64,000 bases of DNA from Sulfurimonadaceae bacterium (GCA_050292115.1 JBNKLA010000057.1:239-64238); one strand, 5' to 3'. Positions 9,756 to 30,829 are shown, numbered from the stretch's first letter. Translations and numbers: made by a program. The notes: generated from the letters alone by a model not told the origin.

Positions 9756-10805
9756 TTAACCGTAAAACGTTTTATACCACGCCACAAAATGCTTAATCCC
9801 CTCACGTAGATCCGTATCGGGTTTATACTCAAAATCTTCTACCAGCGCATCTACATCGGCATAGGTCGAAACTACATCGCCGTCTTGCATGGGTAGCATC
9901 TCTTTTTGCGCCTCTTGTCCCAATTCTGCTTCAAGTGTTTTAATGAAGTCCATAAGTGCCACGGGTTTATTATTGCCGATATTATAAATTCGGTACGGTG
10001 CCGAGGAGCTGTCGATCTCAGGATCATCCGAGTTCCACGAAGTATTGCGTTGTGCCGGTTTGTCAATCACATTTACTACCCCACTCACGATATCATTGAT
10101 ATAGGTGAAGTCACGGCTCATCTGCCCGTTGTTAAAGACTTTGATGGGACGGTTGTTTAAAATGGCATCGCTAAAGAGCATGGGTGCCATGTCGGGTCGT
10201 CCCCACGGCCCATACACGGTAAAAAAGCGCAGTCCCGTCGTCTGAATCCCAAAAAGATGACTATACACATGCGCCATCATCTCATTAGATTTTTTCGTTG
10301 CGGCGTACATGCTTACCGGATGTTCCGTTTTGTCCGACGTTTTAAAGGGTTGCGAGGTATTTAGACCATACACCGACGAACTCGAAGCGTAGGTGAGATG
10401 CTTTATCTCAAAACGGCGACACGCCTCTAAAATATTTAAAAAGCCGCTCACATTGCTATCGACATACGCCTGAGGATTTTCAAGCGAATAGCGCACCCCT
10501 GCTTGCGCCGCAAGGTGACACACCGCATCAAAACGCTCGGTTTCAAAGATTTGAAACAGTGCTTGCTGATCGGAGAGATCGGTTTTATAAAAACGGTGCT
10601 GCTCGTATGTTTGCGATGCTACGGCACTATTATCACTTATAGCATCACGCGCTATTCCCAGTACATGTAAGCGTCCGTATTTGAGATTAACATCATAATA
10701 ATCATTGATATTATCAACCCCAATCACCTCATCGCCACGCTCAAGTAGACGCCGTGCAAGGTGAAAGCCGATAAATCCGGCGCTTCCCGTTACTAAAATT
10801 TTCAT
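9756..10805 (-). CDS. NAD-dependent nucleotide-sugar epimerase (UDP-glucuronate 4-epimerase-like)
   Basis: MKILVTGSAGFIGFHL Rossmann start and a YAATK catalytic motif. The internal ATG at 10805 is preferred to the tracked start at 10865. Confidence 0.85.
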   Translation of the reverse strand: MKILVTGSAGFIGFHLARRLLERGDEVIGVDNINDYYDVNLKYGRLHVLGIARDAISDNSAVASQTYEQHRFYKTDLSDQQALFQIFETERFDAVCHLAAQAGVRYSLENPQAYVDSNVSGFLNILEACRRFEIKHLTYASSSSVYGLNTSQPFKTSDKTEHPVSMYAATKKSNEMMAHVYSHLFGIQTTGLRFFTVYGPWGRPDMAPMLFSDAILNNRPIKVFNNGQMSRDFTYINDIVSGVVNVIDKPAQRNTSWNSDDPEIDSSSAPYRIYNIGNNKPVALMDFIKTLEAELGQEAQKEMLPMQDGDVVSTYADVDALVEDFEYKPDTDLREGIKHFVAWYKTFYG

Positions 10806-10883
10806 ATTTTTGCTTATAGTTTTTTTAGCATTATACTCTATTGCAAAGCGGGTGGTATAATACACGTTTCATTTAGGAGCGCT

Positions 10884-12581
10884 ATGAAAGCTGTTTTCAA
10901 ACGTTACTGGCCCTATCTCAAAGAGTATAAACGCTACTACGTTCTTGTAATTACAGGCATTATTCTGACCGTTGCAGCTACCACGGCTACGGCGCATATT
11001 ATGAAGCCGTTGATGGACGAGATGTTCATAGCCCGCGATCCGGCGATGCTGGTAGGCATTCCGCTGGGGATGATCGGCATCTATTTTATCAAGTCCGTCG
11101 GGCGCTATATTCAAAGCGTTTTTACCCGTCATATCGGAATGCACATCGTCTCGCGGTTTCGTGAGATGCTTTTAGCAAAAATTCTCTACTCCGATATGGA
11201 GTTTTTATACGCCAACCGTAGCGGTGAGCTGATTTCACGTCTTACCAACGACATGAACCGTATTCACTACTTTGTCTCCAACATGCTACCCGATCTGATT
11301 TTAGAGTCGCTTACCATTGTGGCACTGGTGGGATATGTAGTCTATCTCGATCCAGGGCTTAGTTTTTACGCGTTTATCGTAATTCCGCTGGTGATTGTGC
11401 CGCTCATCAAAATCGCCCGCCGTCTTAAAAAGCTCTCGCACCGCTCCCAAGAGAAAAACGCCGATGTCGTCACGCGCCTTACCGAGGTCTTTAACAACAA
11501 CGAAGTCATCAAAGCCAATGCGACCGAAGCGTATGAGCTGAAGCGCTTTAGTGCGGAGAACTGGAAGTTTTTTCGCATTAACATGAAGTCGGTCTACACC
11601 AACGAACTGGTTTCACCTATTATGGAAATTCTGGGCGCTTCGGCACTGGCGGCCATTATCTACATCGGCGGGCACAAGGTGTATGACGGCAGCATGAGCG
11701 TGGGCGAGTTTACCGCGTTTTTAACGGCCGTGGGATTGGCGTTTCAGCCCATTCGCCGTGTGGGCTCCATCTACGGCAAGATTCAAGACGCCATTGCCGC
11801 GAGTGAGCGCATCTTTGCCGTGCTTGATCGAGACGATCACGTTGTCGATGGAAGCACGCAGCTTGAGGAGGATATCACCTCTATTGCGCTGCGAGATGTC
11901 ACCATGCATTATGGCGACACAAAGGCGCTTGAGGGTATTACCCTTGAACTCAAAGCCGGCGATACGGTGGCGCTGGTAGGTGACAGCGGTGGCGGCAAAA
12001 GCTCCCTGATTAACCTGCTGATGCGCTTTTATGAACCCTCTAGCGGCTCTATTACCGTTAACGCCATGCCCATCGAGGCCTTTACCCAGCACTCGCTACG
12101 CCACCATATCGCCATTGTGACCCAGCGTGTTTATATTTTTCAAGACACCCTTGCCGCCAATGTCGCTTATGGCGAAGCGGTCGATGAGGCGCGTGTCATA
12201 GAAGCGCTCAAACTCGCCGATGCTTTAGAGTTTGCACAGAAACTTGAGAACGGCATCCATACCCTTATGGAAGAGTTTGGCGCCAACCTCTCCGGCGGCC
12301 AGCGCCAGCGTATCGCTATTGCCCGCGCCATCTACAAACATGCGTCGCTGCTGATTCTCGATGAAGCCACCAGTGCGCTTGATAACGCCAGCGAACAGCG
12401 CATTCAAAACGCGCTGGAAAACTACGCCAAAGACAAGATTACCATTATCATCGCCCACCGGCTTGATACGATTAAACACGCCGATACGATTTTGGTGTTT
12501 GAATCGGGGAAAATTGTGGAGCGCGGCAGTTACGACACACTCAAAAATGATTCACGGGTCTTTAAGAATCTGATTCGCTGA
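10884..12581 (+). CDS. msbA: MsbA-like ABC exporter (fused permease-ATPase)
   Basis: Six-TM N-terminal half, Walker A GDSGGGKSS, signature LSGGQRQR and Walker B LLILDEATS. Confidence 0.85.
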   Translation: MKAVFKRYWPYLKEYKRYYVLVITGIILTVAATTATAHIMKPLMDEMFIARDPAMLVGIPLGMIGIYFIKSVGRYIQSVFTRHIGMHIVSRFREMLLAKILYSDMEFLYANRSGELISRLTNDMNRIHYFVSNMLPDLILESLTIVALVGYVVYLDPGLSFYAFIVIPLVIVPLIKIARRLKKLSHRSQEKNADVVTRLTEVFNNNEVIKANATEAYELKRFSAENWKFFRINMKSVYTNELVSPIMEILGASALAAIIYIGGHKVYDGSMSVGEFTAFLTAVGLAFQPIRRVGSIYGKIQDAIAASERIFAVLDRDDHVVDGSTQLEEDITSIALRDVTMHYGDTKALEGITLELKAGDTVALVGDSGGGKSSLINLLMRFYEPSSGSITVNAMPIEAFTQHSLRHHIAIVTQRVYIFQDTLAANVAYGEAVDEARVIEALKLADALEFAQKLENGIHTLMEEFGANLSGGQRQRIAIARAIYKHASLLILDEATSALDNASEQRIQNALENYAKDKITIIIAHRLDTIKHADTILVFESGKIVERGSYDTLKNDSRVFKNLIR

Positions 12582-13245
12582 TACGCTCAAAAAAGAGATA
12601 ATAGAGCATCTTCGCCGTAATATACATAATAAAAAACGACACGACCACATCGCTCAAAAAGTGTCCTCCCGCCGCCATGCGGGCGTACCCCACCGAAAAC
12701 CCGTACAGCAGTGCCAGTGTCATCCAGAGTTTTTTACGGCGCGCTAGCAGTGCATAGGCAATAAGCGCAAATGCGCCCGAGGCGTGCCCGCTACTAAACG
12801 AGTTGCCGTTTTGATCGCTCAGTACAAACGCGGGTGTAAAGGTGCGTTTGCCTCCAAACTCCTCAATTTGTATCGGACGCGCGCGCCCCCAGTGATCTTT
12901 GAGTAGTGCATTCACAATCAATCCCGAACCGATACCCAGCACCAAGAGCGCAAAGAGCAGTTTTTTACCGTCAAATGCCGCAATCGTTTTGGAGTTGATA
13001 CGGTTGTAGATCCACACGCCAAGCGCCAGTACGTTGATGCCGATGAGTAAGACGGGCACACTTTTATATAGCACCATTTCCCACCAGCTATTTTTGGAAT
13101 AAAATCCCATTTCGGGGGTATAAAAGAGTCCTGAGGTTTGCAGATCGATTTGCGGGTAAAAAATCCATATAAACGAAGTGGCAAGAAAAAGAAGCCAAAT
13201 AGGGAACGGGACGGAGTTCAAAAACGCTTTCATAAGCGTAATCAT
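12562..13245 (-). CDS. PAP2-family membrane phosphatase (possibly a lipid A or undecaprenyl-PP phosphatase)
   Basis: PAP2 motifs KDHWGRARP, SFSSGHAS and GGHFLSD. The start is uncertain (13266 TTG, 13245 or 13233 ATG). Confidence 0.7.
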   Translation of the reverse strand: MITLMKAFLNSVPFPIWLLFLATSFIWIFYPQIDLQTSGLFYTPEMGFYSKNSWWEMVLYKSVPVLLIGINVLALGVWIYNRINSKTIAAFDGKKLLFALLVLGIGSGLIVNALLKDHWGRARPIQIEEFGGKRTFTPAFVLSDQNGNSFSSGHASGAFALIAYALLARRKKLWMTLALLYGFSVGYARMAAGGHFLSDVVVSFFIMYITAKMLYYLFFERISESDS

Positions 13246-13290
13246 ACCAGAATGCCGCGGTAGCAACTACCGGCGGCGACCAAAACCGAT

Positions 13291-13506
13291 TTAATTTCCG
13301 TGCTGTTTCTCTAAACACGTCTCATATTCGGTGTCACATGCCTGATAGCATTTATCGGCATCTTCGGGTGCTTCGGCACATTTGTCCATGCACTGATCGT
13401 ATTTTTCGTCACATACGGCAGGCTGATAGCTCTCTTCTTCGGCACTTACGGGTGCGCTAAAAAGCATTGCCACAGCAAGAAGACTCAAAAAGTACTTCAT
13501 TTGCAT
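13291..13506 (-). CDS. Small secreted acidic six-cysteine protein
   Basis: Signal peptide MQMKYFLSLLAVAMLFSAPVSA, then CX6CX3CX9CX3CX6C. The upstream part of tracked ORF 13291..13644 has no coding character. Confidence 0.6.
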   Translation of the reverse strand: MQMKYFLSLLAVAMLFSAPVSAEEESYQPAVCDEKYDQCMDKCAEAPEDADKCYQACDTEYETCLEKQHGN

Positions 13507-13769
13507 TACACTATTCTCCAAAATTTTAAAATTGTCATAAGATTGTTTTGTTAGGATGCAGATACAGTTTTTACTGTAACTTCTATCCTGACAAAACGCC
13601 TCAAGGTTCGTTTTACTCAGGCGTATACCGATGCGAACCGCCAAGAAGCATCGGTGTACACACGTGCGTTTTCTATCCGCCCAAGAATTATACTCCCAAA
13701 AAAAATCTTTTATGCTTTGATTTTTTTGAAGAAATCAGATTAATTTTTCGAGTCTTTACAGGATAGCTT

Positions 13770-14486
13770 TTGCACCAGATTAGCAACCACATTTTTTGCG
13801 ACGACTTCGTCTTTAACGTCACTCAAAACCCCCTATTAATGCCTTCGGCTTACGAAGATTATCCCTATCTTTTAATTCCCGATTTTTTTGATACGCTACA
13901 GACATCACTGATTATGGATGAGGTACACCAATCGCTCATTAACACCAAAAAAGCGGCACAGATTAAAATTTCCAAGCAGGGCGCTTATATCCCCAAACTT
14001 CAAAAAGAGATTCGGCATACCCAAACTCTTGAACTAAGCGATACGATTCTCTCAAGCTATTTTGATGCATTTGCTAAGATTCAAAAAACTATCGAAGCGT
14101 TCTTTTGCGCACCGCTCTCAACGGCATCGCACCCGCAAGGGCTTTTTTATGAGCAGGGCGGTTTTTATATGCCACATGCCGATGATTCAAGTATGGTGCT
14201 GGATTCAGATGGAGAGACTGTGGGATTTAAGCACGTGGCACCCCAACGTAAAATTACGACGATTGCATTTTGCAATTCGCATTGTGATTATGATGCTAAA
14301 GGTTTTGAGGGCGGCGAAGTGGTGTTTAGCTATTTAAAAACCAAAAACGGTGAAAGGGTACGTATTAAGCCCAAAGCAGGAACGTTACTGGCATTTCCAA
14401 GCAACCCCCTTTTTGTGCATGAAGTGACCAAAGTTACACAAGGCCAACGTTTTTGCATTGTACAGTGGCATAACGCCGTATTATAG
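13770..14486 (+). CDS. 2OG-Fe(II) oxygenase (prolyl 4-hydroxylase-like)
   Basis: HAD facial triad (YMPHADD), a distal His in FVHEV, and a conserved R (GQRF). TTG start with AGGA 6 nt upstream; an alternative ATG lies at 13839. Confidence 0.7.
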   Translation: MHQISNHIFCDDFVFNVTQNPLLMPSAYEDYPYLLIPDFFDTLQTSLIMDEVHQSLINTKKAAQIKISKQGAYIPKLQKEIRHTQTLELSDTILSSYFDAFAKIQKTIEAFFCAPLSTASHPQGLFYEQGGFYMPHADDSSMVLDSDGETVGFKHVAPQRKITTIAFCNSHCDYDAKGFEGGEVVFSYLKTKNGERVRIKPKAGTLLAFPSNPLFVHEVTKVTQGQRFCIVQWHNAVL

Positions 14487-14488
14487 CG

Positions 14489-14498
14489 TTACATGTAA
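14489..14498. repeat. TTACATGTAA palindrome filling the gap between convergent stop codons
   Basis: The 12-nt gap 14487-14498 reads CGTTACATGTAA; GTTACATGTAAC is a 12-bp palindrome. Confidence 0.95.
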
Positions 14499-14975
14499 CT
14501 ATTTAGAACACGTCGTTAAGCTGGCCTCTTGGACTAACTGCTTGATGTTGTCATCAAAATAGCGCACGGTTTTGCCATCAACTTCGACATCAAGTTTGCG
14601 AATGCTAAAACACTCTACCTCTGTATCACCCCATCCACCATTGAGTACCGGCTTGGCATTGACGCTCCCCGGAGAGACATGTTCGTAATCCTCCACCCAG
14701 TGTGCCATTGTGGTGCCCTCAGCTTTGGCTTCGAGCTCATAAATTACGACGGAGATTAACTTATCGGATGTATTTGCAAAGTTGATAACCGGATGCACCT
14801 GACCGGTTTTGGAATCTTTAAAGGTTGAAACGCCATAAATCACCAAAGGCAAACCCGCTTTTTTGGCCGCTTCGACATCTACGCTATTTTTAGGGGCTTT
14901 GGGCTGTTTGGAACACCCACTAAATAAGACCGAAAATATCAATGCCAAAACGATAAACGCACTAAATTGCTTCAT
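14499..14975 (-). CDS. Lipoprotein of unknown function
   Basis: Signal peptide with lipobox LFSGC (MKQFSAFIVLALIFSVLFSGCSK). Confidence 0.7.
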   Translation of the reverse strand: MKQFSAFIVLALIFSVLFSGCSKQPKAPKNSVDVEAAKKAGLPLVIYGVSTFKDSKTGQVHPVINFANTSDKLISVVIYELEAKAEGTTMAHWVEDYEHVSPGSVNAKPVLNGGWGDTEVECFSIRKLDVEVDGKTVRYFDDNIKQLVQEASLTTCSK

Positions 14976-20694: not shown

Positions 20695-23600
20695 ATGCAA
20701 AAATTACTGGATCGGCTTCATCGACTCGGCTTTTGGCCGTATATCTTTCTTTTTACCACTTTGGCGATTGTCATCTCCGAGCTGTTGATCCTTGTGCAGA
20801 GCTACTGGTTGAGCGGCACTTTTTTTGATAGAAACCTGCTTATCGTCGGCTTTATTACTCCGGCCATTGACGGCTTTATTATTTTTTTTCTGATGGCACT
20901 CTTATTACGCTATGTTTACACGCTTTCGCAAGAACAGAGCCATTTAAGTGCGCTTTTTGACCGTAGCGATATTGTACTGTTCAAATGGAAAAATGCTGAA
21001 AATTGGCCGGTTGAAAGCGTCTCAAAAAATGTGTCGGCACTTACGGGCTATTCCTCGCAAGAGTATCTTGAGGGAACGGTTTTATACTCTAATCTGATTC
21101 ATCTCGACGATCTTCCGATTGTTACCGCCGAAGTTATCGATGCGATCGACACCCATACGGATTTTTTTACCCATCAACCTTATCGCATTATCACACGTGA
21201 CGGCGATGAACGCTGGGTGCTTGACCGCACGCTTCCCATTCGCGACGGAAACGATCAGATTACCCATTTTGTCGGATTTCTTACGGACATTACCGATGTC
21301 ACGCTCAAAGACAAACAGCTTCTTGAGAGCGAATTACGCTGGAAATTTGCGATCGAAGGCAGTGGAGACGGGCTATGGGAGTGGAATGTCCAAACCCATG
21401 AAGTCTATTTTTCAAGACAGTGGAAAATGATGCTTGGCTATTCAGACGATGAGATCCAAAACCGTTTTGACGCGTGGGAACAGCTACTTCACCCCGATGA
21501 TCGTGAACCGACACATAAACATATTGATGAATTTATTGCGCGCAAGAGTAAACGCTATATGGTGGAATTTCGTCTGCGTTGCAAAGACGGTACCTATAAA
21601 TGGATTCTTGCCCGTGCCAAAGCTCTCAAATACGATAATGACGGCAATATTGTTTTGATGACCGGCATCCACACCGATATCGATGAACGCAAACGTCAAG
21701 CTGAAGCGCTTGTACAAGCACAGCGCATGGCCAACCTTGGAAGTTGGAGTTACGATATTGCCAACGATACGCTCCATCTATCCGAACAGATTTACAGAAT
21801 TTTCTCTATTAACCTTTCAACAGTTGCACCTACTTACAAAAACATTCTTCATGTTATCCATCCCGATGATCGCAAAATGGTCAATGATCTCTATACCCGT
21901 GCACTTCAAAACCATGGACCCTATAAGCTCACGCACCGCCTTTTGTTAAAAAACGGAACCATCAAATATGTCATCGAACGCGGAGAAACCCTATATAACG
22001 ATAAAGAAGAGGCTGTTATCATTCGCGGAACTATTCAAGATATTACGCAACAGCATGAGACCCAATTAGCACTGGTTGAAGCTAAAAAAAGTGCCGATAG
22101 GGCCAACAAGGCAAAAAGTAATTTTCTTGCCAATATGAGCCATGAAATTCGCACACCGCTTAACGGTATTATCGGACTTACTAAACGTTTAGAGTCTACC
22201 CCGATCAACCCCAAACAGCGTGATTATCTTGATAAAATCCTGTATTCATCCGAATCGTTACTACACATCATTAATGACATCCTCGACTACTCTAAAGTCG
22301 AAGCGGGTAAACTGGAACTTCTGATGCAACCCTTTAGCCTCAATGAACTGCTTGAATCACTGCATGATCTTTTTGATTTTACAGCCTCTTCCAAAGGGGT
22401 CGCACTACGGCTTGAGCTATCTGATAACGTGCCCGACACGCTTCTCGGCGACGCTTTAAGGCTCAAGCAGATTTTGACCAACATTATCGGTAATGCGATC
22501 AAATTTACCGAAAAAGGCTCGGTGACAGTAAGGCTTACGTGGCTCAACAAACATCCCACCCCCCTCTGCCGGTTTGAGATTATCGACACCGGTATCGGTA
22601 TGCGTCCCGAAGTGCTCCAAAATCTTTTCACAGAGTTTATGCAAGCAGATGATTCCATTACCCGAAAATTTGGCGGAAGCGGTCTTGGACTGGCAATTAC
22701 CAAGAAACTGGTAGATCTGATGAATGGCACCATCAGCGCCACAAGCCGTGAGCACATCGGCACCACTATGCGTGTCGATATTCCGCTAATACCCTCGCGA
22801 GTCAAAACATCCTCTGCGCCTAGCGTTGAAAATAGCCTACCCGTCAGCTTTAGCAATACCCGAATTTTGCTGGTTGAAGACGATATCATTAATCAGATGG
22901 TTGCCAAAGAGTTACTCGAATCGTATGATATCCATGTGAGCGTTGCATTCAATGGGATCGAGGCGGTGCATTATGCGCAAACAGAGTCGTTTGATATGAT
23001 TCTTATGGATCTGCAAATGCCGGAAATGGACGGATTTGAAGCCACACGACGCATCCGTGATATTGATACATGTAAAGCCATTCCCATTATCGCGCTGAGT
23101 GCCGCCGTACTGCCAAACGACCGTGAACTGACCCAAGAGAGCGGTATGAACGGCCATCTTGCAAAACCGATTGATGAGAGAGAATTTATCGCGACACTCT
23201 CAAAGTGGCTTAAACACACTACACAGACGCCCACGCCGATTAAACACTCTGTGACCAATTCGCAAACCTCTATCGAAGGTATCGATATGCAAGCATTACT
23301 AAAGCGTCTCATGAACAAGAGTGACAAAGTAGCTAAACTTTTAGAACTCTTTAGCATGGAGTATCGCGATTTTGTATCTACATGCGAAGCGCAAAAAGAT
23401 TCACCGGAGCACTTTAAAAAATTGATGCACACTTACAAAGGTACTACTGCCAATCTTAGTATGAACCGACTCAGTGCAATGGCAAAGTCGCTTGAAAATG
23501 CGTTTGATCAAACGCAATTTGTAACGCTTTTGAAGCAGCATGAGCAAATGCTCACCGATATTTCCAACTACTTACATGTAAACCCTCAAGAGCAGATAAA

Positions 23601-23829
23601 AACAGTTGCGCCCACGCTATCGCGCAACCGTCTTAAAGAGCAATGTGGAGCACTCATTGACGATCTTGCGGTTTCACGTCTGGTCGAAGCAGAGCAAATT
23701 GAAGCGATTGCGGTAGCCCTAAATACCCATATCGGATTCGAGAATGCGCAGCTCCTTAAAAAACAGATTACTTCTTTTGAGTATGATGATGCCATCAAAA
23801 CTCTAATTGAGATTATGGAGAAATTATGA
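20695..23829 (+). CDS. Hybrid sensor histidine kinase (TM, multiple PAS, HisKA, HATPase, receiver, HPt)
   Basis: H-box NMSHEIRTPLNG, HATPase DTGIGM/GGSGLGL, receiver ILLVEDD...DMILMDLQMPEMDG...K, and a C-terminal HPt-like HTYKGTTANL. Confidence 0.9.
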   Translation: MQKLLDRLHRLGFWPYIFLFTTLAIVISELLILVQSYWLSGTFFDRNLLIVGFITPAIDGFIIFFLMALLLRYVYTLSQEQSHLSALFDRSDIVLFKWKNAENWPVESVSKNVSALTGYSSQEYLEGTVLYSNLIHLDDLPIVTAEVIDAIDTHTDFFTHQPYRIITRDGDERWVLDRTLPIRDGNDQITHFVGFLTDITDVTLKDKQLLESELRWKFAIEGSGDGLWEWNVQTHEVYFSRQWKMMLGYSDDEIQNRFDAWEQLLHPDDREPTHKHIDEFIARKSKRYMVEFRLRCKDGTYKWILARAKALKYDNDGNIVLMTGIHTDIDERKRQAEALVQAQRMANLGSWSYDIANDTLHLSEQIYRIFSINLSTVAPTYKNILHVIHPDDRKMVNDLYTRALQNHGPYKLTHRLLLKNGTIKYVIERGETLYNDKEEAVIIRGTIQDITQQHETQLALVEAKKSADRANKAKSNFLANMSHEIRTPLNGIIGLTKRLESTPINPKQRDYLDKILYSSESLLHIINDILDYSKVEAGKLELLMQPFSLNELLESLHDLFDFTASSKGVALRLELSDNVPDTLLGDALRLKQILTNIIGNAIKFTEKGSVTVRLTWLNKHPTPLCRFEIIDTGIGMRPEVLQNLFTEFMQADDSITRKFGGSGLGLAITKKLVDLMNGTISATSREHIGTTMRVDIPLIPSRVKTSSAPSVENSLPVSFSNTRILLVEDDIINQMVAKELLESYDIHVSVAFNGIEAVHYAQTESFDMILMDLQMPEMDGFEATRRIRDIDTCKAIPIIALSAAVLPNDRELTQESGMNGHLAKPIDEREFIATLSKWLKHTTQTPTPIKHSVTNSQTSIEGIDMQALLKRLMNKSDKVAKLLELFSMEYRDFVSTCEAQKDSPEHFKKLMHTYKGTTANLSMNRLSAMAKSLENAFDQTQFVTLLKQHEQMLTDISNYLHVNPQEQIKTVAPTLSRNRLKEQCGALIDDLAVSRLVEAEQIEAIAVALNTHIGFENAQLLKKQITSFEYDDAIKTLIEIMEKL

Positions 23830-25079
23830 GGCGTTCGAATATTCTTATTGTAGATGATGAGCCGATCAACCTCTCTATGATTGCAGATATTTTAAAAGTG
23901 CAGCACAATATCTTTATTGCAACCGGAGGAAAAAAAGCTCTTGATATTCTAAGACGTGAGCATATCGATCTGATTCTTCTTGATATCGTCATGCCGGATA
24001 TGGACGGCCTTGAAGTCGCCGATACCATCAATCATGACTCGCAATATCACAATGTACCGTTTATCTTTTTAACAGCTCAAAATACCCAACAGCAGATTGT
24101 TAAAGGTTTTGAAGCCGGTGCTATCGACTACATCGCCAAACCCTACAGCAAAGAGGAGCTTATGGCCAGAGTCGGAACGCATTTAAAAGTACACCGGCTT
24201 CAACACGAGATAAAACAGAGCCAAAGACGCTTGCAAAAACTCTATGATATGCAAAAAAACATTGTCATCGTAACCGATGGCCAAATGCTAAAAATCGTCA
24301 ATAAGAGCCTTTTGGAGTTTTTCGGCTTTGACTCTCTTAAAACCTTCCAACAACACTATAGTTGCATCTGTGAGCTTTTTGAGCCAAAAGAGGGCTTTTT
24401 TCATCTCGACCTTGTTAACGAAGCAGAGACATGGAGCCATGCCATGATAAAGCTTGCACCTGAAAAGCGGGTGGTCTCTTTAAAAGATCAGCATGGTGAA
24501 GATCACGCCTTTAGCGTATCAGTGAATGATTTTGAAGATAATGAATTTATCATCACTTTTAGCGATATCAGCTCCACCATAAGGCTACAGCAAGCGCTAC
24601 AAGATGAAACCCTGCATGATCCACTTACCAGAGCCAAAAACAGAAAGTTTTTTGATACCCATATTAATGCCATTTTAGAAAATGCCAAAGGCAACATCGG
24701 CCTTTTAATGCTAGATATCGACCACTTCAAACGCGTTAACGACACTTACGGACATCTTGTTGGCGATACGGTACTCAAAACGCTTGTACAGGTTATCAAA
24801 GCTTCCATACGCAACCAAGACCACCTTATACGCTGGGGAGGCGAAGAGTTTCTGCTCATCATTGATATCGACAGCACTAATGATCTTTTGATCGCGGCTG
24901 AAAACCTTCGCCGTAATATTGAAATCTACACCTTTGAGGCCGCAAAAAACATTACATGTAGTATCGGAGGTAAGATGCATCAACGCTATCACAATGTCGC
25001 CTCAACCGTGCAAGAGGCCGACGAAGCACTCTATCGCGCCAAAAACGAAGGCCGTAACCATGTAGTAATCTCATCATAA
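23826..25079 (+). CDS. Response regulator with a GGDEF diguanylate cyclase output
   Basis: ATGA overlap with the kinase gene. Receiver (ILIVDDEP...DLILLDIVMPDMDG), a central PAS-like region and the RWGGEEFLL active site. Confidence 0.9.
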   Translation: MRRSNILIVDDEPINLSMIADILKVQHNIFIATGGKKALDILRREHIDLILLDIVMPDMDGLEVADTINHDSQYHNVPFIFLTAQNTQQQIVKGFEAGAIDYIAKPYSKEELMARVGTHLKVHRLQHEIKQSQRRLQKLYDMQKNIVIVTDGQMLKIVNKSLLEFFGFDSLKTFQQHYSCICELFEPKEGFFHLDLVNEAETWSHAMIKLAPEKRVVSLKDQHGEDHAFSVSVNDFEDNEFIITFSDISSTIRLQQALQDETLHDPLTRAKNRKFFDTHINAILENAKGNIGLLMLDIDHFKRVNDTYGHLVGDTVLKTLVQVIKASIRNQDHLIRWGGEEFLLIIDIDSTNDLLIAAENLRRNIEIYTFEAAKNITCSIGGKMHQRYHNVASTVQEADEALYRAKNEGRNHVVISS

Positions 25080-25088
25080 GGAACTGTT

Positions 25089-25214
25089 GTGAAATTTCTG
25101 ATACTTTTAGTGGGCATAATATTAATATTTGGCGGATGTACGACCAAAACATTTGATCATGAAAGCTACGAACGTCAAAACAGCGCCGCTGAAAAAAGCC
25201 TTGAATCACTCTGA
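25089..25214 (+). CDS. Candidate 41-aa lipoprotein, below the ORF-track size cutoff
   Basis: GTG KFLILLVGIILIFGGCTTKTFDHESYERQNSAAEKSLESL stop. It has a clear signal peptide with lipobox FGGC. Confidence 0.45.
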   Translation: MKFLILLVGIILIFGGCTTKTFDHESYERQNSAAEKSLESL

Positions 25215-25222
25215 TTTAAGCC

Positions 25223-25232
25223 TTACATGTAA
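25223..25232. repeat. TTACATGTAA palindrome in an intergenic gap
   Basis: Exact copy. The following AAGGA could serve as the RBS for the ATG at 25247. Confidence 0.95.
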
Positions 25233-25246
25233 AGGATATTGTTTTT

Positions 25247-27250
25247 ATGAAATGGCTTATCGCTATCGTATCGACCCTACTTCTCATTTTTATTTTGCTG
25301 TTTGCTCTGCTCTTCACACCTCCGGGAAATAGCATCGTCGGTGGTATTGTCGAATCTAAACTCAATGCAAAACTACCGCTAAAAACGACGCTTGAGACCT
25401 TTGAACTCTCTTATGATGCGTTACATGTAGAGCTGTTGCTTACGCCCAATAACCGTATCAGTGTAGTTGGAAACTTTAACCTTTTTTCTCAGGCATTCAA
25501 CATGGCCTATCGTCTGAAACTTGAAAATCTCAAAGCGCTTGAGCCGTTAAGTAAGCAAAAACTTTACGGGGTATTTCGCACCGAGGGCACGGTTACGGGC
25601 GATCTTAAAACGACTCGCATTCAGGGCAACAGCGACGTGGCAGAGTCTAACACCACCTACCATATGGTGCTAAACGACTTTAACCCGCAAAGCATCATCG
25701 CCACTATCGATGGCGCAAAAACAGAGCAACTTTTAGCCATGGTCGGCAAAGCTCCCTATGCGCTCTCACGTCTACATGTAAAGGCTAATATGCGCTCCAT
25801 TGACCCCGCCAATCTCGATGGCGACATGGCAATAACACTCAGCGACGGCCGTATCGATACCGCGCTGATGCAACGCGACTTCAACGTTACCCTGCCGCAA
25901 ACCACCTTGGCGCTTGACTCCAAAGCACTGCTTAAAAGTAGCACTGTCGATTATAATCTAAAACTCACCTCTAACCTTGCCAAAATTATCTCCAAAGGTA
26001 CGATTGAGCCCAAAACCCTCGGCATGGATCTGGCCTATGCGCTTGATATCGCCAAACTCGAACTCTTTAAGCCGCTTACCAATGCGCCGCTTCGCGGTGC
26101 CGTGCGTCTTAGCGGTGATGTCAAAGGCAATAAAGCCAAACTGCTGGTGCGCGCCCAAAGCGATGTGGCGGCAAGCGACACCACGATAAACGCCGAACTG
26201 CATGAGTTTAAACCTTACGCCATAAAGGGTGAAATTCGCAAGCTCTCACTGGAGAAACTGCTCCATATGCTCGAACAGCCTCACTATCTTAGCAGCGGTC
26301 TTTTAAGTGCCAAAATCGATATTCCCGATGCTAGGGAGGGAAACCTTAAGGGAGATATCACCTCTTTTATCAGCGACGGTCGTGTCGATACCGGCACCAT
26401 GCAAACCGAATTGGGATTTATCAATATGCCCAAAACCGTGTTTACTACCAAAACCCACTCTCAATTTGCCCAAAGCTTGATCGATACCCGCGTCGATGTC
26501 GATTCCAATCTGGCTGATCTTAGTATTGCTCACGCGCGTTTTGATATGAAGGATGCAACCCTTAAAAGCGACTACAACGCGACATTGCATGATTTAAGCA
26601 AGCTCCGGTTCGTAACCAAACAGCCGCTTCGCGGCACGCTTACATGTAACGGTGACATTATTAAAGATCAAGCCCTAAAAGCCACCTTTCATTCTGCTAC
26701 ACTCGGCGGAACCATAGATGCCACACTTAATGACAATGATTTTAATGCCCATCTTGTGCAGCTTGAAACGTTGAAGATTTTACATATGCTCTATTACCCC
26801 GAAGTCTTTGCCTCGACACTCAAAGGCACACTGCATTACGATCTGGCTCAAAAAAAGGGCGCGCTTGATAGCGTTATGCATAAAGGAAGATTCACCCAAA
26901 ACCAGATGGGCGACCTGCTGAAAAAGTACGCCAAATACGATCTCTATCAAGAGCGGTTTGAAACCACACTCAACAGCACCATTGCGCCCAAACAGATTGA
27001 TAGCAACCTCTCGATGCGCGGCGGATCGATCACAATTAACGATCCCAAAATGCGGCTTTTGACCGAAAAACAGAGCATTCGGTCCGATCTGAATATCGTA
27101 GCCAACAACAACCCGCTAATCGTAAAACTGCGTGGCAATGTCAAAGCGCCCAACGTTTCGGTTGACGCCAGCAAACTGATTCAGCGCGAAGCGGGCAAAG
27201 TGATCAACAAAGAGGTGGGAAACCTGCTCAATTCGCTTTTTAAAAAGTAG
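25247..27250 (+). CDS. Large N-terminally anchored envelope protein with internal repeats (AsmA/TamB-like, uncertain)
   Basis: N-terminal TM segment (WLIAIVSTLLLIFILLFALLF). The repeated module is LDGDMAITLSDGRIDTALMQ versus LKGDITSFISDGRVDTGTMQ. Confidence 0.6.
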   Translation: MKWLIAIVSTLLLIFILLFALLFTPPGNSIVGGIVESKLNAKLPLKTTLETFELSYDALHVELLLTPNNRISVVGNFNLFSQAFNMAYRLKLENLKALEPLSKQKLYGVFRTEGTVTGDLKTTRIQGNSDVAESNTTYHMVLNDFNPQSIIATIDGAKTEQLLAMVGKAPYALSRLHVKANMRSIDPANLDGDMAITLSDGRIDTALMQRDFNVTLPQTTLALDSKALLKSSTVDYNLKLTSNLAKIISKGTIEPKTLGMDLAYALDIAKLELFKPLTNAPLRGAVRLSGDVKGNKAKLLVRAQSDVAASDTTINAELHEFKPYAIKGEIRKLSLEKLLHMLEQPHYLSSGLLSAKIDIPDAREGNLKGDITSFISDGRVDTGTMQTELGFINMPKTVFTTKTHSQFAQSLIDTRVDVDSNLADLSIAHARFDMKDATLKSDYNATLHDLSKLRFVTKQPLRGTLTCNGDIIKDQALKATFHSATLGGTIDATLNDNDFNAHLVQLETLKILHMLYYPEVFASTLKGTLHYDLAQKKGALDSVMHKGRFTQNQMGDLLKKYAKYDLYQERFETTLNSTIAPKQIDSNLSMRGGSITINDPKMRLLTEKQSIRSDLNIVANNNPLIVKLRGNVKAPNVSVDASKLIQREAGKVINKEVGNLLNSLFKK

Positions 27251-27680
27251 CGGCCAGTTGCGCTTCGTTGCACGCAAAGCGCACCGATGAGACGGTCTGA
27301 TTTTGGAGTTCCAGTAGCGTCACACACCCCTCTTGATAGGGAAGCTGTTGATTATATTTGGCATCAAAGCTCAATAAAATAGGATGCTCATAGCTTTGCA
27401 TACGCGGTTTGACAAAGAGGCTGAAAATACCGGAAGGCACCTGCGACACATCCACCACCAAAGCGGCGTTATGCGTCTGCAAAAAGCTTTTGTGCGCGTC
27501 GATATATCGGTTTGCCAAACGCGTTGTCTCTTTGTCCCACGCCAGTAACCATAGACGCTCACTACCCAGCACATGCTTGACGCCAAACTGATCTTCAAGC
27601 TCTAGCGCGCTAATTTTTGAACCGAGACTTAGCGTTTGGGCTATGATTATGGCGGGAATAACAAGTATCCAAAACTTCAT
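27240..27680 (-). CDS. Secreted hypothetical protein
   Basis: 146 aa with an N-terminal signal-like segment, MKFWILVIPAIIIAQTLS. An RBS, GAGGAA, lies upstream. Confidence 0.55.
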   Translation of the reverse strand: MKFWILVIPAIIIAQTLSLGSKISALELEDQFGVKHVLGSERLWLLAWDKETTRLANRYIDAHKSFLQTHNAALVVDVSQVPSGIFSLFVKPRMQSYEHPILLSFDAKYNQQLPYQEGCVTLLELQNQTVSSVRFACNEAQLAATF

Positions 27681-27717
27681 TCTATTTCCTCACAATTACG
27701 CCACCAAAAAGAGACTT

Positions 27718-28734
27718 TTATCTCAAACTAATTTTCGATGCAATTGATTCTGCAAGCGCTTCAAAATCTTTTTTTGCACCTAAAACTGCATTTGCATGAC
27801 TGCCAATGGCTCCATCGGCAGCTGTGAGGTTAAAAATAGGTTTACGAGATTCTTGTGCCATTGGTATTAATGAACGGTAATGTTTGATCGTTCCAAGAGA
27901 GTAAGGATCATCGTTTACGGTAATATTTGATGAAGCAGTGGTTTCATTCAAGACCACTTCTCGATAAACACTGGGAATTTTATTGATCCATCGGTCGTAT
28001 GCTTTGACTGGACGATCTAAGCGCACACCATGTTGCTGAGAGAGGTATCCTACTGGTTGCATGATACCTTGAGGTAAAGTGAAGTCGGTATATTCTTGAA
28101 AATCACTACTCTCTTTCCAGTTCTCTAACCGTTTTTTCCATGCACTTCGCCAATTTTTTAATGCCGGACCAAGGTTTTTAAGTCCTTGCAACGAGAAAAG
28201 ATCTGCTCCTAGTGGAATAACAACATAATCCGTAGCCAATAGTACCGATCTATTAATCGCACCTAAATTGGGTCCAATATCTACTAAAATGATATCGGCA
28301 TTGATTTGTGATGCCGCATTTTGCATCACGTGCCAAAAAGATGTCAAAATACGCAAAGGACGATACAGATTATTGTCTGCCATACTTTCTCCCCATTGTG
28401 ACGCCAAAACATCCTCATAACTCGACAAAGCTACATCGCCTGCAACAAGAAAAAGGTTTTGTGTAATAGTTTGCAAGCGAGGCGTTACAAGATCGCCAAC
28501 ACCCGTCAATGGCCTAACACATTGATAAATTGTGGAACCCGATTCGGAACGCTCCCATAACGTATTAATTTCATCCTCATTTAAAAACGCAGCAGTCAAA
28601 TTGGCCTGAGGGTCTAAATCTGCCACAACGACACGCTTGCCCAGCAAAGCATACATCCATGCAAGATGATAGATTAAAGAAGTTTTTCCCACCCCCCCTT
28701 TGTTATTAAAAAAAGTCAGAACCGGAACACTCAT
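27718..28734 (-). CDS. ParA/Soj-like deviant Walker A ATPase with a C-terminal extension
   Basis: FNNKGGVGKTS deviant Walker A and DLDPQANLT. 338 aa. The start overlaps the upstream gene stop (ATGA). Confidence 0.85.
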   Translation of the reverse strand: MSVPVLTFFNNKGGVGKTSLIYHLAWMYALLGKRVVVADLDPQANLTAAFLNEDEINTLWERSESGSTIYQCVRPLTGVGDLVTPRLQTITQNLFLVAGDVALSSYEDVLASQWGESMADNNLYRPLRILTSFWHVMQNAASQINADIILVDIGPNLGAINRSVLLATDYVVIPLGADLFSLQGLKNLGPALKNWRSAWKKRLENWKESSDFQEYTDFTLPQGIMQPVGYLSQQHGVRLDRPVKAYDRWINKIPSVYREVVLNETTASSNITVNDDPYSLGTIKHYRSLIPMAQESRKPIFNLTAADGAIGSHANAVLGAKKDFEALAESIASKISLR

Positions 28735-29939
28735 TGTTTACCTCGAATAATACACAAAACGTGACTTTCATTCACTTCAAAATCAAGCGGGGGATTGCCA
28801 TTGGTCTCTAGCGCTTTTTTTGCCGTAGCAATACCTCTGCCAAAGGACTGCACGTATCCAAAGACTTTTAATACATCCGCAATATTAGGGTTTCTATAAT
28901 CTGTAATACCGGGGGTAGCAAAATTATTTACCGTAACGTTTCCATACGGACCGCCGGGACTCATAATCTCAATACGGTCATTAAACCAATACACACGAAT
29001 AGGCATATTGGTATTTTCATAGGTACGATGCATAACGGCATTGTACACAAGTTGTTGCAAGGCAACTTGAGGATACGGCGATGTTATGGCGTGTGTGGGC
29101 GAAGAGGTAATATCAATAGCATTACGGTTATGTGCTTTAAGCTTCTCTTCAATACGCCGCAATACTTCAACAAGCGCTCCCGTAATCTTCTCCTCATCAA
29201 TCACCTCATCACTAAGCTCGGTACCATCAATGCGCAAAAATTGAATAAATGCACCGAGTATAAAATCTTGCGGCGTTTTACCCAATGCCAAAATTCCTGT
29301 CACTGTGGGCACCGTCTCTTCAGGAGAAACAATCATTTTGCATGAAGATAAACGCTCCTCGTAACTTCTGCCGTTTTCTTCTAAAACATCTGATGCAAAC
29401 GCTGAAGGTAAATATTCATACTCAAATTTTGAACGCACCAAATCAGACAATGAAGCCGTTGAAACAGGATAAAGGTCAAACGGTAGGTGTTTGTAGCGAC
29501 GCTTTTCAATCAAAATACGTTCATCTTGAGCCGATGCCAAGCTTCGTCTTGGACCGGTACGTACCCAAATACGTCCATCATATTTTACAGGAGGAATATC
29601 TGAGGGCATCACGATTACTACAACCATTTCAGCTCCATCTAATACGCGTTTTTCAACACTCATAGTTGGCACGGGTAAAATATTACCGTCTGTTTTCATG
29701 TTAGCAATGTTTAACAACAGTGCATCATCTATCATAAGATGTGAGGGTGAACCATCATCTTTCGCACCAATAATGAGCACTCCCGCCTTATTATGATTGC
29801 TCAAATCGTTACAAAAAGCACAAATTGCCTGACGCGCTTTTTTGGGGACATCCCCTTTAAACGACTCTTTTCGCTCACACAATTCGGATTCGGTATCGTG
29901 TAACAGTCTTACAAGCTCATCATCGATGTATCTAGTCAT
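28731..29939 (-). CDS. AlbA_2 (Schlafen-type) domain protein with a C-terminal HATPase_c_4-like domain
   Basis: The N-terminal ESELCERKESFKG is typical of the AlbA_2 'divergent AAA' domain. The C-terminal NAVMHRTYENTNMPIRVYWFNDRIEIMSPGG matches the RecG-like C-terminal ATPase-like domain signature. Confidence 0.8.
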   Translation of the reverse strand: MTRYIDDELVRLLHDTESELCERKESFKGDVPKKARQAICAFCNDLSNHNKAGVLIIGAKDDGSPSHLMIDDALLLNIANMKTDGNILPVPTMSVEKRVLDGAEMVVVIVMPSDIPPVKYDGRIWVRTGPRRSLASAQDERILIEKRRYKHLPFDLYPVSTASLSDLVRSKFEYEYLPSAFASDVLEENGRSYEERLSSCKMIVSPEETVPTVTGILALGKTPQDFILGAFIQFLRIDGTELSDEVIDEEKITGALVEVLRRIEEKLKAHNRNAIDITSSPTHAITSPYPQVALQQLVYNAVMHRTYENTNMPIRVYWFNDRIEIMSPGGPYGNVTVNNFATPGITDYRNPNIADVLKVFGYVQSFGRGIATAKKALETNGNPPLDFEVNESHVLCIIRGKQ

Positions 29940-30004
29940 CTGCGTTCTCTATTTTATATTGCTTCAAGTATACTTACTCTGTACTAAAAAATGGTTAAAA
30001 ATGG

Positions 30005-30829
30005 CTATGCTAATCGCCTGTTGCGCCATCTAAAATAGACCCATAGCACCACCGCCCCTGCGATCATCATCAAGCTCAGCTCTTGGCCTTTACTCATCCA
30101 TCCGCAGCAGATAAAGCCCAGTTGCGGGTCGGGTTCGCGCCAAAACTCGGCTGTAAAGCGTGCAAGTCCATAAGCAAAGCCATAAAGCAGTACCAGTTCA
30201 CCCTCAAAACGCTTGTAATTACGGTACATGTAAATGACTAAAAAGACCGCAAGACCTTCAAGTAGCGCTTCGTAGAGTTGCGAAGGATGGCGCAGTACGC
30301 CATCAACATAGATACCTATCGGCAACTCGGTTGCGCGCCCCACAAGCTCTTGATTTAAAAAATTGCCGATACGTCCAAAGATATAGCCTACCGGTATAGC
30401 AGTGACGGCCACATCGAGCACCCGCCCCATCGGTACTCTCTGGCGCTTATAAAAGAGATACGAACCGATAAAAAAGCCGATCACCGCACCGTGATAGCTC
30501 ATTCCGCGAATCCCCACGAAGTCGCCTGCGGCATTAAAAGGGTTAAATATCTGCCACGGATGGCTCAGATAATACGCTGTCTGCGGATCGTAAAAGAGAA
30601 TATAGCCAAGCCGTGCGCCCAAGATTACGCCGATCTCAACATAAATAAAGTAGTCATCAAGCTGTTTATGTGTTAGGGCAATCGCATCGCGGCGCACAAT
30701 CCATTTGGCAGCCCACAATGCCGTAAGCAGTGCCAAAACGTACATAAGCCCATACCAGTGCACCGGAATCGAAAAGAGCGTAAACGCCACCGGATCAAAC
30801 TGTTCGTAGATATGGTTCCAAAACTCCAT
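30005..30829 (-). CDS. lgt: Prolipoprotein diacylglyceryl transferase
   Basis: HWYGLMY, GRIGNF and HPSQLYEALLEG motifs. Confidence 0.92.
   Translation of the reverse strand: MEFWNHIYEQFDPVAFTLFSIPVHWYGLMYVLALLTALWAAKWIVRRDAIALTHKQLDDYFIYVEIGVILGARLGYILFYDPQTAYYLSHPWQIFNPFNAAGDFVGIRGMSYHGAVIGFFIGSYLFYKRQRVPMGRVLDVAVTAIPVGYIFGRIGNFLNQELVGRATELPIGIYVDGVLRHPSQLYEALLEGLAVFLVIYMYRNYKRFEGELVLLYGFAYGLARFTAEFWREPDPQLGFICCGWMSKGQELSLMMIAGAVVLWVYFRWRNRRLA

Follow-up and report, generated by a model that had tools for sequence, protein, structure and literature searches.

A 64,000-nt stretch of a Sulfurimonadaceae genome (GCA_050292115.1, contig JBNKLA010000057.1:239-64238), hereafter the window, carries between lgt and a small gene, orf146, an inserted cassette of two genes, here called A and B, that encode a Schlafen-GHKL protein and a ParA/Soj-like ATPase, respectively. 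Drawing on domains, motifs, linkage, co-divergence, a natural fusion, insertion, embedding in bacteriophage exclusion (BREX) operons and effector swapping, all of them read from sequence, we consider it probable, with some reservation, that this cassette is a horizontally acquired conflict module in which A is an ATP-assembled Schlafen ribonuclease (RNase) effector and B its dedicated nucleotide-dependent regulator or sensor, and that the cassette began as a BREX accessory and has since come to circulate alone. Both halves belong to known kinds, namely the prokaryotic Schlafen effectors and the predicted dyads of a ParA-type ATPase with a toxin, and the pair is not a categorically new system. 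The A-B pair is most likely a two-part module of defense or addiction that has not been described before. The initial annotation, made from the sequence of the window, had put the two genes forward as a candidate phage-defense, abortive-infection or addiction module and knew of no characterized system made of such a pair. As a candidate, the proposal is supported by the analyses below, given that the pair is not core, its genes co-occur and its composition is foreign; PADLOC v2.0 holds no model for the pair, and the literature searched agrees.

Homologs of A and B number in the thousands each. For either protein, the 120 best of them share ~69-76% identity with the window sequence and mostly keep the lengths of 402 and 338 amino acids. 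Their hosts include Sulfuricurvum, Dickeya, Rugamonas, Nitrospira, Acidobacteria and Desulfobacter, the copies in Dickeya lacustris and D. chrysanthemi being 72% identical, and public annotations call the homologs 'putative DNA binding domain-containing protein', 'ATP-binding protein' or 'ParA family protein'. A genome scan restricted to one genome per species yields 220 relatives of A, of which the best 80, 63-76% identical to A and drawn from at least 12 phyla, were analyzed. B lies directly downstream of A in 75 of these 80 loci, with the identical 4-base overlap in 65 of the 75. The reciprocal scan of metagenomes with B yields 41 loci, 38 of which have A directly upstream, and the divergent metagenome pairs, whose B and A proteins are 40-53% and 36-45% identical to those of the window, all keep the pairing. 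Across 85 complete pairs, the pairwise identities of A track those of B closely (r = 0.957, Mantel p = 0.001), and the correlation persists inside the core clade (r = 0.74). A natural A-B fusion, P0310 (731 amino acids), joins SLFN_AlbA_2, HATPase_c_4 and AAA_31 domains in operon order; it was found among 1.84 billion cluster representatives and occurs on seven contigs from four independent sources. No conserved third gene surrounds the cassette in the 80 loci, and A stands alone in five of them. Co-occurrence of the two genes beyond the window, on which the proposal of a module had been made to depend, is thus almost obligate, and as judged from these sequences the A-B pair is a conserved, horizontally spread unit.

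The pairing seems to extend far outside the conserved clade, because the best solved relatives of B and A, Protein Data Bank (PDB) entries 3pg5 (DIP2308) and 3lmm (DIP2311), both come from Corynebacterium diphtheriae and bear locus tags three apart. On this evidence, an actinobacterial form of the pair seems to have been crystallized in 2010 with the link unremarked, adjacency being taken here from the locus tags.

Pfam matches residues 17-132 of A to SLFN_AlbA_2 (PF04326; 45.2 bits against a gathering cut-off of 25.3) and, C-terminal to this Schlafen domain, residues 313-394 to HATPase_c_4 (PF13749; 60.1 bits against 26). Both scores exceed the gathering values, in agreement with the original description of a 402-residue protein with an N-terminal AlbA_2 and a C-terminal HATPase_c_4 domain. 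In the Schlafen catalytic motif Ex4ExK, E17 and K24 are conserved in all 85 paired homologs and E22 in 84, the remaining one having Asp, and D61 is likewise conserved in 85 of 85. By sequence, the nuclease site of A looks active, because three of these residues never vary and E22 does so only once. Foldseek searches with the confidently modeled N-terminal domain retrieve 3lmm, SLFN13, SLFN11, SLFN14, SLFN5 and the tRNase domain of SAMD9, with 3lmm as the top match of A over ~410 columns. Residues 237-385 also align to 3lmm in sequence (E = 1e-6), and the GHKL residues N300, H304, R305, G329, G330, R349-N352 and G367-G369 are invariant in the A family. Pfam detects no HEPN family in A.

The combination of PF04326 with PF13749 has been named the 'Schlatpase' supradomain (bioRxiv 10.64898/2026.05.29.728809). 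Within it, the B-paired proteins are set apart by the N-box of the GHKL domain, in which the position of the catalytic Glu is occupied by Q296 in 85 of 85 A proteins, including those only ~42% identical, whereas 3lmm, the P0310 fusion, three unpaired Schlatpases from plasmids and RzAgo (E314), a Schlafen-containing prokaryotic Argonaute (SLFN-pAgo), all have Glu there. The Mg-binding Asn, N300, is retained in A. Mutants of GHKL proteins at the catalytic Glu bind ATP without hydrolyzing it. In RzAgo, coordination of the gamma-phosphate and Mg falls to E314 and N318, and the E314A mutant loses hydrolysis and keeps ATP binding (bioRxiv 10.64898/2026.05.29.728809). By analogy with that mutant, paired Schlatpases probably bind ATP without hydrolysis, because an invariant Gln replaces their catalytic Glu. 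Gln at the N-box is a variant feature and does not exclude these proteins from the Schlatpase family.

B scores 95.1 bits against AAA_31 and 49.2 bits against CbiA in Pfam and carries the deviant Walker A sequence NNKGGVGKTS. Of the residues compared among 85 homologs, the signature lysine K12 is kept in 84, the P-loop lysine K17 in 82 and T18 in 85, and D39, D41 and D152 are each present in all 85. Residues 5-316 match 3pg5 (E = 1.8e-29). The AlphaFold2 (AF2) model of B has a predicted local distance difference test score (pLDDT) of 79 and a predicted template modeling score of 0.84, and Foldseek ranks 3pg5 first for this model, followed by Soj, ParA and McdA, with E values of ~1e-11 for Soj and ParA. 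These Soj and ParA targets are ~245-265 residues long, and B possesses an extra conserved region of ~130 residues with the C-terminal motifs H285, R287-L289 and G308-A309-I310-G311-x-H313 (HYRSL, DGAIGxH). Pfam, the motif and the 3pg5 alignment agree that B is what it was first taken for, a 338-residue deviant-Walker-A ParA/Soj-like ATPase with an additional C-terminal region. NCBIfam recognizes B as a generic ParA-superfamily protein only, and its scores lie far below the cut-offs of the specific families (ParA_partition, 57.8 against 180; RepA, 68.8 against 348; SopA, 30.1 against 725; PrgP, 39.9 against 400).

The cassette is an acquisition rather than part of the core genome. In the closest available relative (locus L088; Lgt 87%, the small protein 55% and a 667-residue flank protein 62% identical), lgt is followed by a 62-bp gap (2652-2713) and then by the orf146 ortholog, with no cassette between them, and in a more distant relative (L090) two unrelated genes, for a nitroreductase and a glycosyltransferase, occupy the site (10513-14633). 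The lgt/small-gene junction may be a local integration hotspot among Sulfurimonadaceae-like relatives. These relatives are too diverged to place the insertion borders at base level, and no border repeats above chance accompany the insertion. The composition of the cassette tells the same story. Its G+C content (GC) is 0.413 against 0.462 for the whole window, in which only 0.6% of equal-sized windows are this low, and GC at third codon positions (GC3) is 0.345 in A and 0.319 in B against 0.52-0.58 in lgt, orf146, orf267, orf667, hemN and the glcF-like gene. The first estimate of 37-43% GC for the islet and ~50% for its flanks is roughly right, the islet being at 41.3% and the flanks nearer 47-49%. 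The mismatch extends to most other hosts: over 68 loci, the mean GC of the cassette is 5.2 points under that of its flanks, with a difference of more than 3 points downward in 45 and upward in only 3. No copies of the conserved clade occur in 5,426 complete E. coli genomes. The gene table for the 10 kb on either side of the cassette bears out the reported lack of an integrase, tRNA, rep or parB gene. Two other origins were considered and set aside. A prophage or integrative-element remnant finds no nearby integrase or tRNA, no copy in IMG/VR or phage records and border repeats only at chance level; for a partition-system remnant, ParB, a centromere and plasmid copies are all missing, and the scores lie under the family cut-offs.

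In several genomes the cassette is, as the gene order has it, an insert at the brxC-pglX junction of BREX operons, because BrxC precedes A and PglX or PglXI follows B. A BrxC gene lies directly upstream of A in L031, L037, L067 and L081; a PglXI methyltransferase gene lies directly downstream of B in L013 and L081; and in L037 a type IIG-like methyltransferase directly follows B, with a PglXI homolog further on. BrxF is found nearby in several cassette loci. Other add-on defense genes are also embedded in BREX loci. In 13-16 of the 80 loci, the 3' tail of brxC, comprising its last 60-80 bases (…KVRIVME followed by the stop; …AAGGTGCGGATCGTCATGGAATAA), stands immediately upstream of A, and the tail only, or fragments, occur without an intact adjoining brxC in L016, L027, L030, L039, L042, L044, L054, L058 and L084, with degraded brxC fragments at L039:1583-2632 and L058:9000-10001. 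The cassette either took part of brxC along when leaving BREX or persisted while the system around it decayed. The tails, at the level of sequence, are a molecular fossil of BREX origin. No brxC-tail remnant was detected upstream of the window cassette, and the gene table lists no BREX genes within 10 kb on either side of it.

Further defense genes near the cassette include AbiEi, S and R subunits of type I systems (in L035 and L044, respectively) and several candidate families of PADLOC, and one solo A adjoins PD-Lambda-1 (L077). The suspected defense neighborhood of the pair is therefore partly confirmed. The linkage is real and chiefly to the brxC-pglX junction of BREX, and it is confined to a minority of loci, a PADLOC-recognized gene, mainly of BREX, being present among the four nearest neighbors in only ~15-20%; the window cassette has no such gene within 10 kb. 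Within the cassette itself, PADLOC-DB v2.0 matches A only to the Schlafen-GHKL portions of its pAgo and Aga models, with no pAgo present, and B only to PDC-M28B over 39 Walker A residues. As a separate observation, a distant Schlatpase, 26% identical to A, is encoded within a type I restriction-modification (R-M) operon of the Klebsiella IncC plasmid pNDM-KN (L137:865-7038), between a gene for a TrlF-family AAA-like ATPase and hsdS, after which comes another AAA ATPase gene; it is another Schlafen protein with ATPase neighbors in a defense operon.

The ATPase family of B, which takes in 506 clusters at E <= 1e-30, is also found with other effectors. Full-length B-family genes overlap downstream ThsA-like SIR2 genes by 4 bp on a Spirosoma plasmid (L133:4010-5898) and a Salmonella plasmid (L134:3992-5910); PADLOC v2.0 does not recognize this ParA-SIR2 pair as a system, and the Spirosoma copy adjoins PDC-S28. 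P0383 (545 amino acids, six contigs) is a B-family ATPase fused to a C-terminal RES toxin domain (Pfam, 51 bits). P0332 (595 amino acids) combines a B-family ATPase with a C-terminal region of ~270 residues, in which a possible PD-(D/E)xK-like motif was seen by eye. Walker A is degenerate in both P0383 and P0332. Further B-family members have recombinase, Abi or type I R-M genes as neighbors. Keeping the ATPase constant while the effectors change is how modular defense and toxin-antitoxin systems usually show themselves. It is possible, though we hold the idea only tentatively and with more doubt than conviction, that DIP2308-type ParA-like ATPases form a widespread, hitherto unrecognized immune sensor or switch that reads the general state of the cell (nucleoid or DNA occupancy, ATP level) and gates swappable suicide effectors (the Schlafen-GHKL tRNase, SIR2, RES and possibly HEPN), with the GHKL domain of the Schlafen branch serving as an E-to-Q ATP-binding assembly domain and hydrolysis performed by the partner. 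If true, such a switch would explain why the Schlafen-HisKinase proteins tested so far gave no defense.

As to the RNase target, the formation of a complex, the direction of regulation, the trigger and the defense phenotype, we infer the following scheme. By analogy with characterized prokaryotic Schlafens, A would be an RNase effector, probably cutting tRNA, that is active only on oligomerizing. B would form a complex with A and gate its activity, either by holding A inactive until an infection-linked cue arrives or by licensing its assembly. A would bind ATP without hydrolyzing it, and the hydrolysis-driven switch would be supplied by B. Activation of A would then stop translation, with phage replication aborted or cells that lose the module killed. 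The module appears to have begun as an accessory in BREX operons, between brxC and pglX, and then to have spread in stand-alone form.

The features of the locus are collected in Table 1. The two-gene layout with its ATGA overlap is as originally described, in both the open reading frames (ORFs) and the shared bases, and the overlap implies, from sequence, translational coupling of A and B. Scanning reveals no promoter-like sites above chance in the 65-bp spacer and no terminator-like site in the 37-bp spacer, and scans of the cassette for a promoter or terminator of its own are at or below chance; transcriptional read-through from lgt into the cassette is possible. A search for a hidden RNA gene against Rfam at E <= 1 returns only one chance-level snoRNA match. 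A role for orf146 as a third component is ruled out by its ortholog, which adjoins lgt in the cassette-free L088, and by its absence from other cassette loci.

Table 1. Coordinates of the cassette, its motifs and its borders in the window
Feature	Position	Strand	Description
Gene A	28731-29939	minus	ORF, 402 amino acids; Schlafen-GHKL protein, predicted RNase effector
Gene B	27718-28734	minus	ORF, 338 amino acids; ParA/Soj-like ATPase, predicted regulator or sensor of A
A/B overlap, ATGA	28731-28734	minus	stop codon of A within start codon of B
Schlafen catalytic motif, codons of E17-x4-E22-x-K24	29868-29891	minus	read from the translation
GHKL (Bergerat-fold) ATP-binding region, ~residues 237-394 of A	28758-29231	minus	alignment to 3lmm and PF13749
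N-box, codons of Q296-L-V-Y-N300	29040-29054	minus	Gln where other Schlatpases carry the catalytic Glu
Deviant Walker A of B, codons of N10-T18 (NNKGGVGKT)	28681-28707	minus	signature Lys K12 and P-loop Lys K17, from the translation
C-terminal extension of B, ~residues 205-338	27721-28122	minus	missing from canonical ParA/Soj, common with 3pg5
65-bp spacer, lgt stop to A start	29940-30004	minus	upstream insertion border
37-bp spacer, B stop to orf146 start	27681-27717	minus	downstream insertion border
lgt	30005-30829		PF01790, 219 bits
orf146	27240-27680		146 amino acids, signal-peptide-like N-terminus

Two further observations concern the composition of the window at large. The 8-bp palindrome TACATGTA is present in 45 copies in 64 kb (for example at 670, 5458, 15096, 15114, 19190, 19207, 30225 and 63703), where ~1-2 are expected from length alone; possible identities are a dispersed-repeat core, a signal of the uptake type and a methylation-related motif. 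As noted at the outset, with due caution, the cassette contains none. The argument is weak because the 3584-bp gap over the cassette is only the sixth largest in the window, and depletion of the palindrome was dropped as evidence of foreign origin. Stretches of the window as AT-rich as the cassette (~0.41-0.42 GC) lie at 501-2900 and 23200-25400, the latter spanning a response-regulator/GGDEF gene with a GC3 of 0.445.

Several observations weigh against a mobile, B-controlled anti-phage effector. Of the five solo A genes, four seem undamaged, with Ex4ExK present, and B is accordingly not a strictly required antitoxin. Identities of 63-76% across phyla are unusually conservative for a phage-sensing system, and the conserved clade has zero copies in 72,556 plasmids, 50,697 phage records and IMG/VR. 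In ~80% of loci, the window included, the neighbors are housekeeping genes with no known defense gene among the nearest four, a degree of linkage that falls short of the 69.6% within 10 kb on either side published for prokaryotic Schlafens, although the two measures differ. In the only published tests of the architecture, two Slfn-HisKinase constructs, which may or may not have included a ParA partner, gave no protection against a phage panel (PMC13056530). At the level of the proteins, the AF2 model of A is poor beyond residues 1-112 (pLDDT 54.7), and the fusion P0310 retains the N-box Glu, which the idea of hydrolysis outsourced to B leaves unexplained.

Part of this evidence could be read in terms of an addiction module that resembles a toxin-antitoxin system and has no dedicated role against phage; A would be an RNase toxin, B would neutralize it through a nucleotide-dependent conformational change or phosphorylation, and the pair would persist because its loss is costly. 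The same model has been proposed for dyads of a ParA/Soj-like ATPase with a HEPN RNase (PMC3710099). The cassette, moreover, survives as an isolated pair amid housekeeping genes and outlives decayed BREX loci that keep brxC fragments or a tail, A and B are tightly coupled translationally, and solo A is rare (5/80). The intact solo A genes fit poorly, however, as a toxin left unneutralized would be expected to disappear, unless another part of the genome encodes B; the effector-first order is the reverse of that in the 2013 dyads and in the ParA-SIR2 pairs; and embedding in BREX operons points to a role in infection. Addiction and defense roles are in any case not mutually exclusive, and we regard pure addiction as rather unlikely. 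Those same BREX operons raise the question of whether the cassette is a BREX accessory, or 'backup effector', that works only with BREX proteins, the window copy being a functionless relic that has not yet decayed. Such an accessory would suit the position between brxC and pglX or pglXI in at least five loci, with BrxF nearby, the brxC 3' tails that 13-16 of the 80 loci keep upstream of A and the designation of Schlafen-histidine kinase (Schlafen-HK) proteins as auxiliary BREX effectors (PMC12839542). Yet most loci, that of the window among them, lack BREX genes while their ORFs are intact and their catalytic residues conserved. Autonomous function is favored by purifying selection outside BREX over at least 12 phyla, and divergent pairs of 40-50% identity also stand alone. 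We estimate dependence on BREX to be very unlikely.

Less probable still, to the point of meriting little credence, is a function outside conflict altogether, for example as a regulator that binds DNA or RNA and is switched or placed by a ParA-type ATPase, or as what is left of a partition system. A is widely annotated as 'transcriptional regulator / RecG-like', the annotations of homologs speak of DNA binding, ATP binding and the ParA family, sequence conservation is high, and most genomes place the pair among housekeeping neighbors. What such a function leaves unaccounted for is the patchy distribution, with an empty site in L088, the foreign composition in most hosts and the intact nuclease active site, together with a partner ATPase family that also pairs with SIR2 and RES toxin domains. 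A partition role in particular is opposed by the lack of a ParB, centromere, replication gene or conserved neighbor, by scores far under the cut-offs of the NCBIfam partition equivalogs and by the absence of the clade from plasmids. The horizontally acquired two-gene conflict module of BREX-accessory origin is thus the reading that we favor.

The locus matters beyond its host. Schlafen nucleases connect human antiviral immunity (SLFN11, SAMD9) with bacterial defense, and a mechanism has been demonstrated for only two bacterial Schlafen architectures, the most abundant one, Schlafen with GHKL/HisKinase, being without one. The pair in the window defines a large and cleanly delimited Schlafen subfamily tied to a dedicated ParA-like ATPase and provides a testable hypothesis for its control. 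A further implication is that ATPases of the ParA type, whose known work is the positioning of protein and DNA cargo, may regulate toxic effectors (Schlafen, SIR2, RES), as predicted in 2013; the literature searched contains no experimental test of that role. The brxC-tail fossils, finally, are a rare readable trace of an accessory module leaving a defense operon and becoming an independent cassette.

Comparison with known systems places the pair among several relatives. The structural-genomics proteins DIP2308 and DIP2311 are the best solved relatives of B, its C-terminal extension included, and of A, although they are distant (~20-23% identity in Foldseek alignments), and DIP2311 has 583 residues and keeps the N-box Glu. 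With ParA, Soj, MinD and McdA, B shares a deviant Walker A (KGGVGKT) with the signature lysine, a Soj-like fold and conserved Asp residues; it differs in having no ParB, MinE or McdB partner and no centromere, its partner being a nuclease-ATPase. In BREX of types 3 and 1, the cassette sits at the brxC-pglX junction in several genomes, but as an insert and not a core component, the window and ~80% of loci having no BREX genes. In at least 1017 taxa, Schlafen-HK proteins are associated with BREX, and a 2026 survey in Nucleic Acids Research describes them as auxiliary BREX effectors (PMC12839542).

The two-gene unit of a ParA/Soj-like ATPase with an RNase effector recalls a comparative-genomic prediction of 2013, in which dyads of such an ATPase with a HEPN protein of the MAE_18760 family were interpreted as toxin-antitoxin systems, the ATPase being the antitoxin (Anantharaman et al., Biol Direct 2013, PMC3710099). 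Some MAE_18760 proteins are fused to Schlafen domains, and the ATPase was proposed to regulate the RNase by its nucleotide state (PMC3710099). The effector here is a Schlafen-GHKL protein free of HEPN by Pfam, and the order of effector before ATPase is the reverse of that in the dyads, where the ATPase gene comes first.

RzAgo shares PF04326 and PF13749 with A, and hence the PADLOC pAgo and Aga models match A. Binding of ATP to RzAgo's GHKL domain leads to tetramerization and an active nuclease (bioRxiv 10.64898/2026.05.29.728809). The window has neither an Argonaute core nor a guide RNA, and RzAgo hydrolyzes ATP by means of E314 where A has Q296. SLFN-pAgos have no conserved gene partner according to the RzAgo study, whereas A has an almost obligate one.

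The closest kin are the prokaryotic Schlafens (pSlfn), anti-phage effectors that cleave tRNA through an Ex4(E/D)xK catalytic site (Perez Taboada et al., Nat Microbiol 2026, PMC13056530). Among 5,930 pSlfn proteins, Slfn-HisKinase is the commonest architecture at 34%, with a further 19% carrying a helix-turn-helix domain (PMC13056530). A has this architecture, with an N-terminal Schlafen/AlbA_2 domain, the Ex4(E/D)xK site and a histidine-kinase-like ATPase domain. The main texts of that study and of the other Schlafen papers searched mention no ParA-like partner. The characterized pSlfn, Slfn5 with its Ig-like sensor and DUF262-Slfn, are single proteins with sensor domains of their own; A, by contrast, is linked to an ATPase encoded by a gene of its own, and Gln stands in place of the GHKL Glu.

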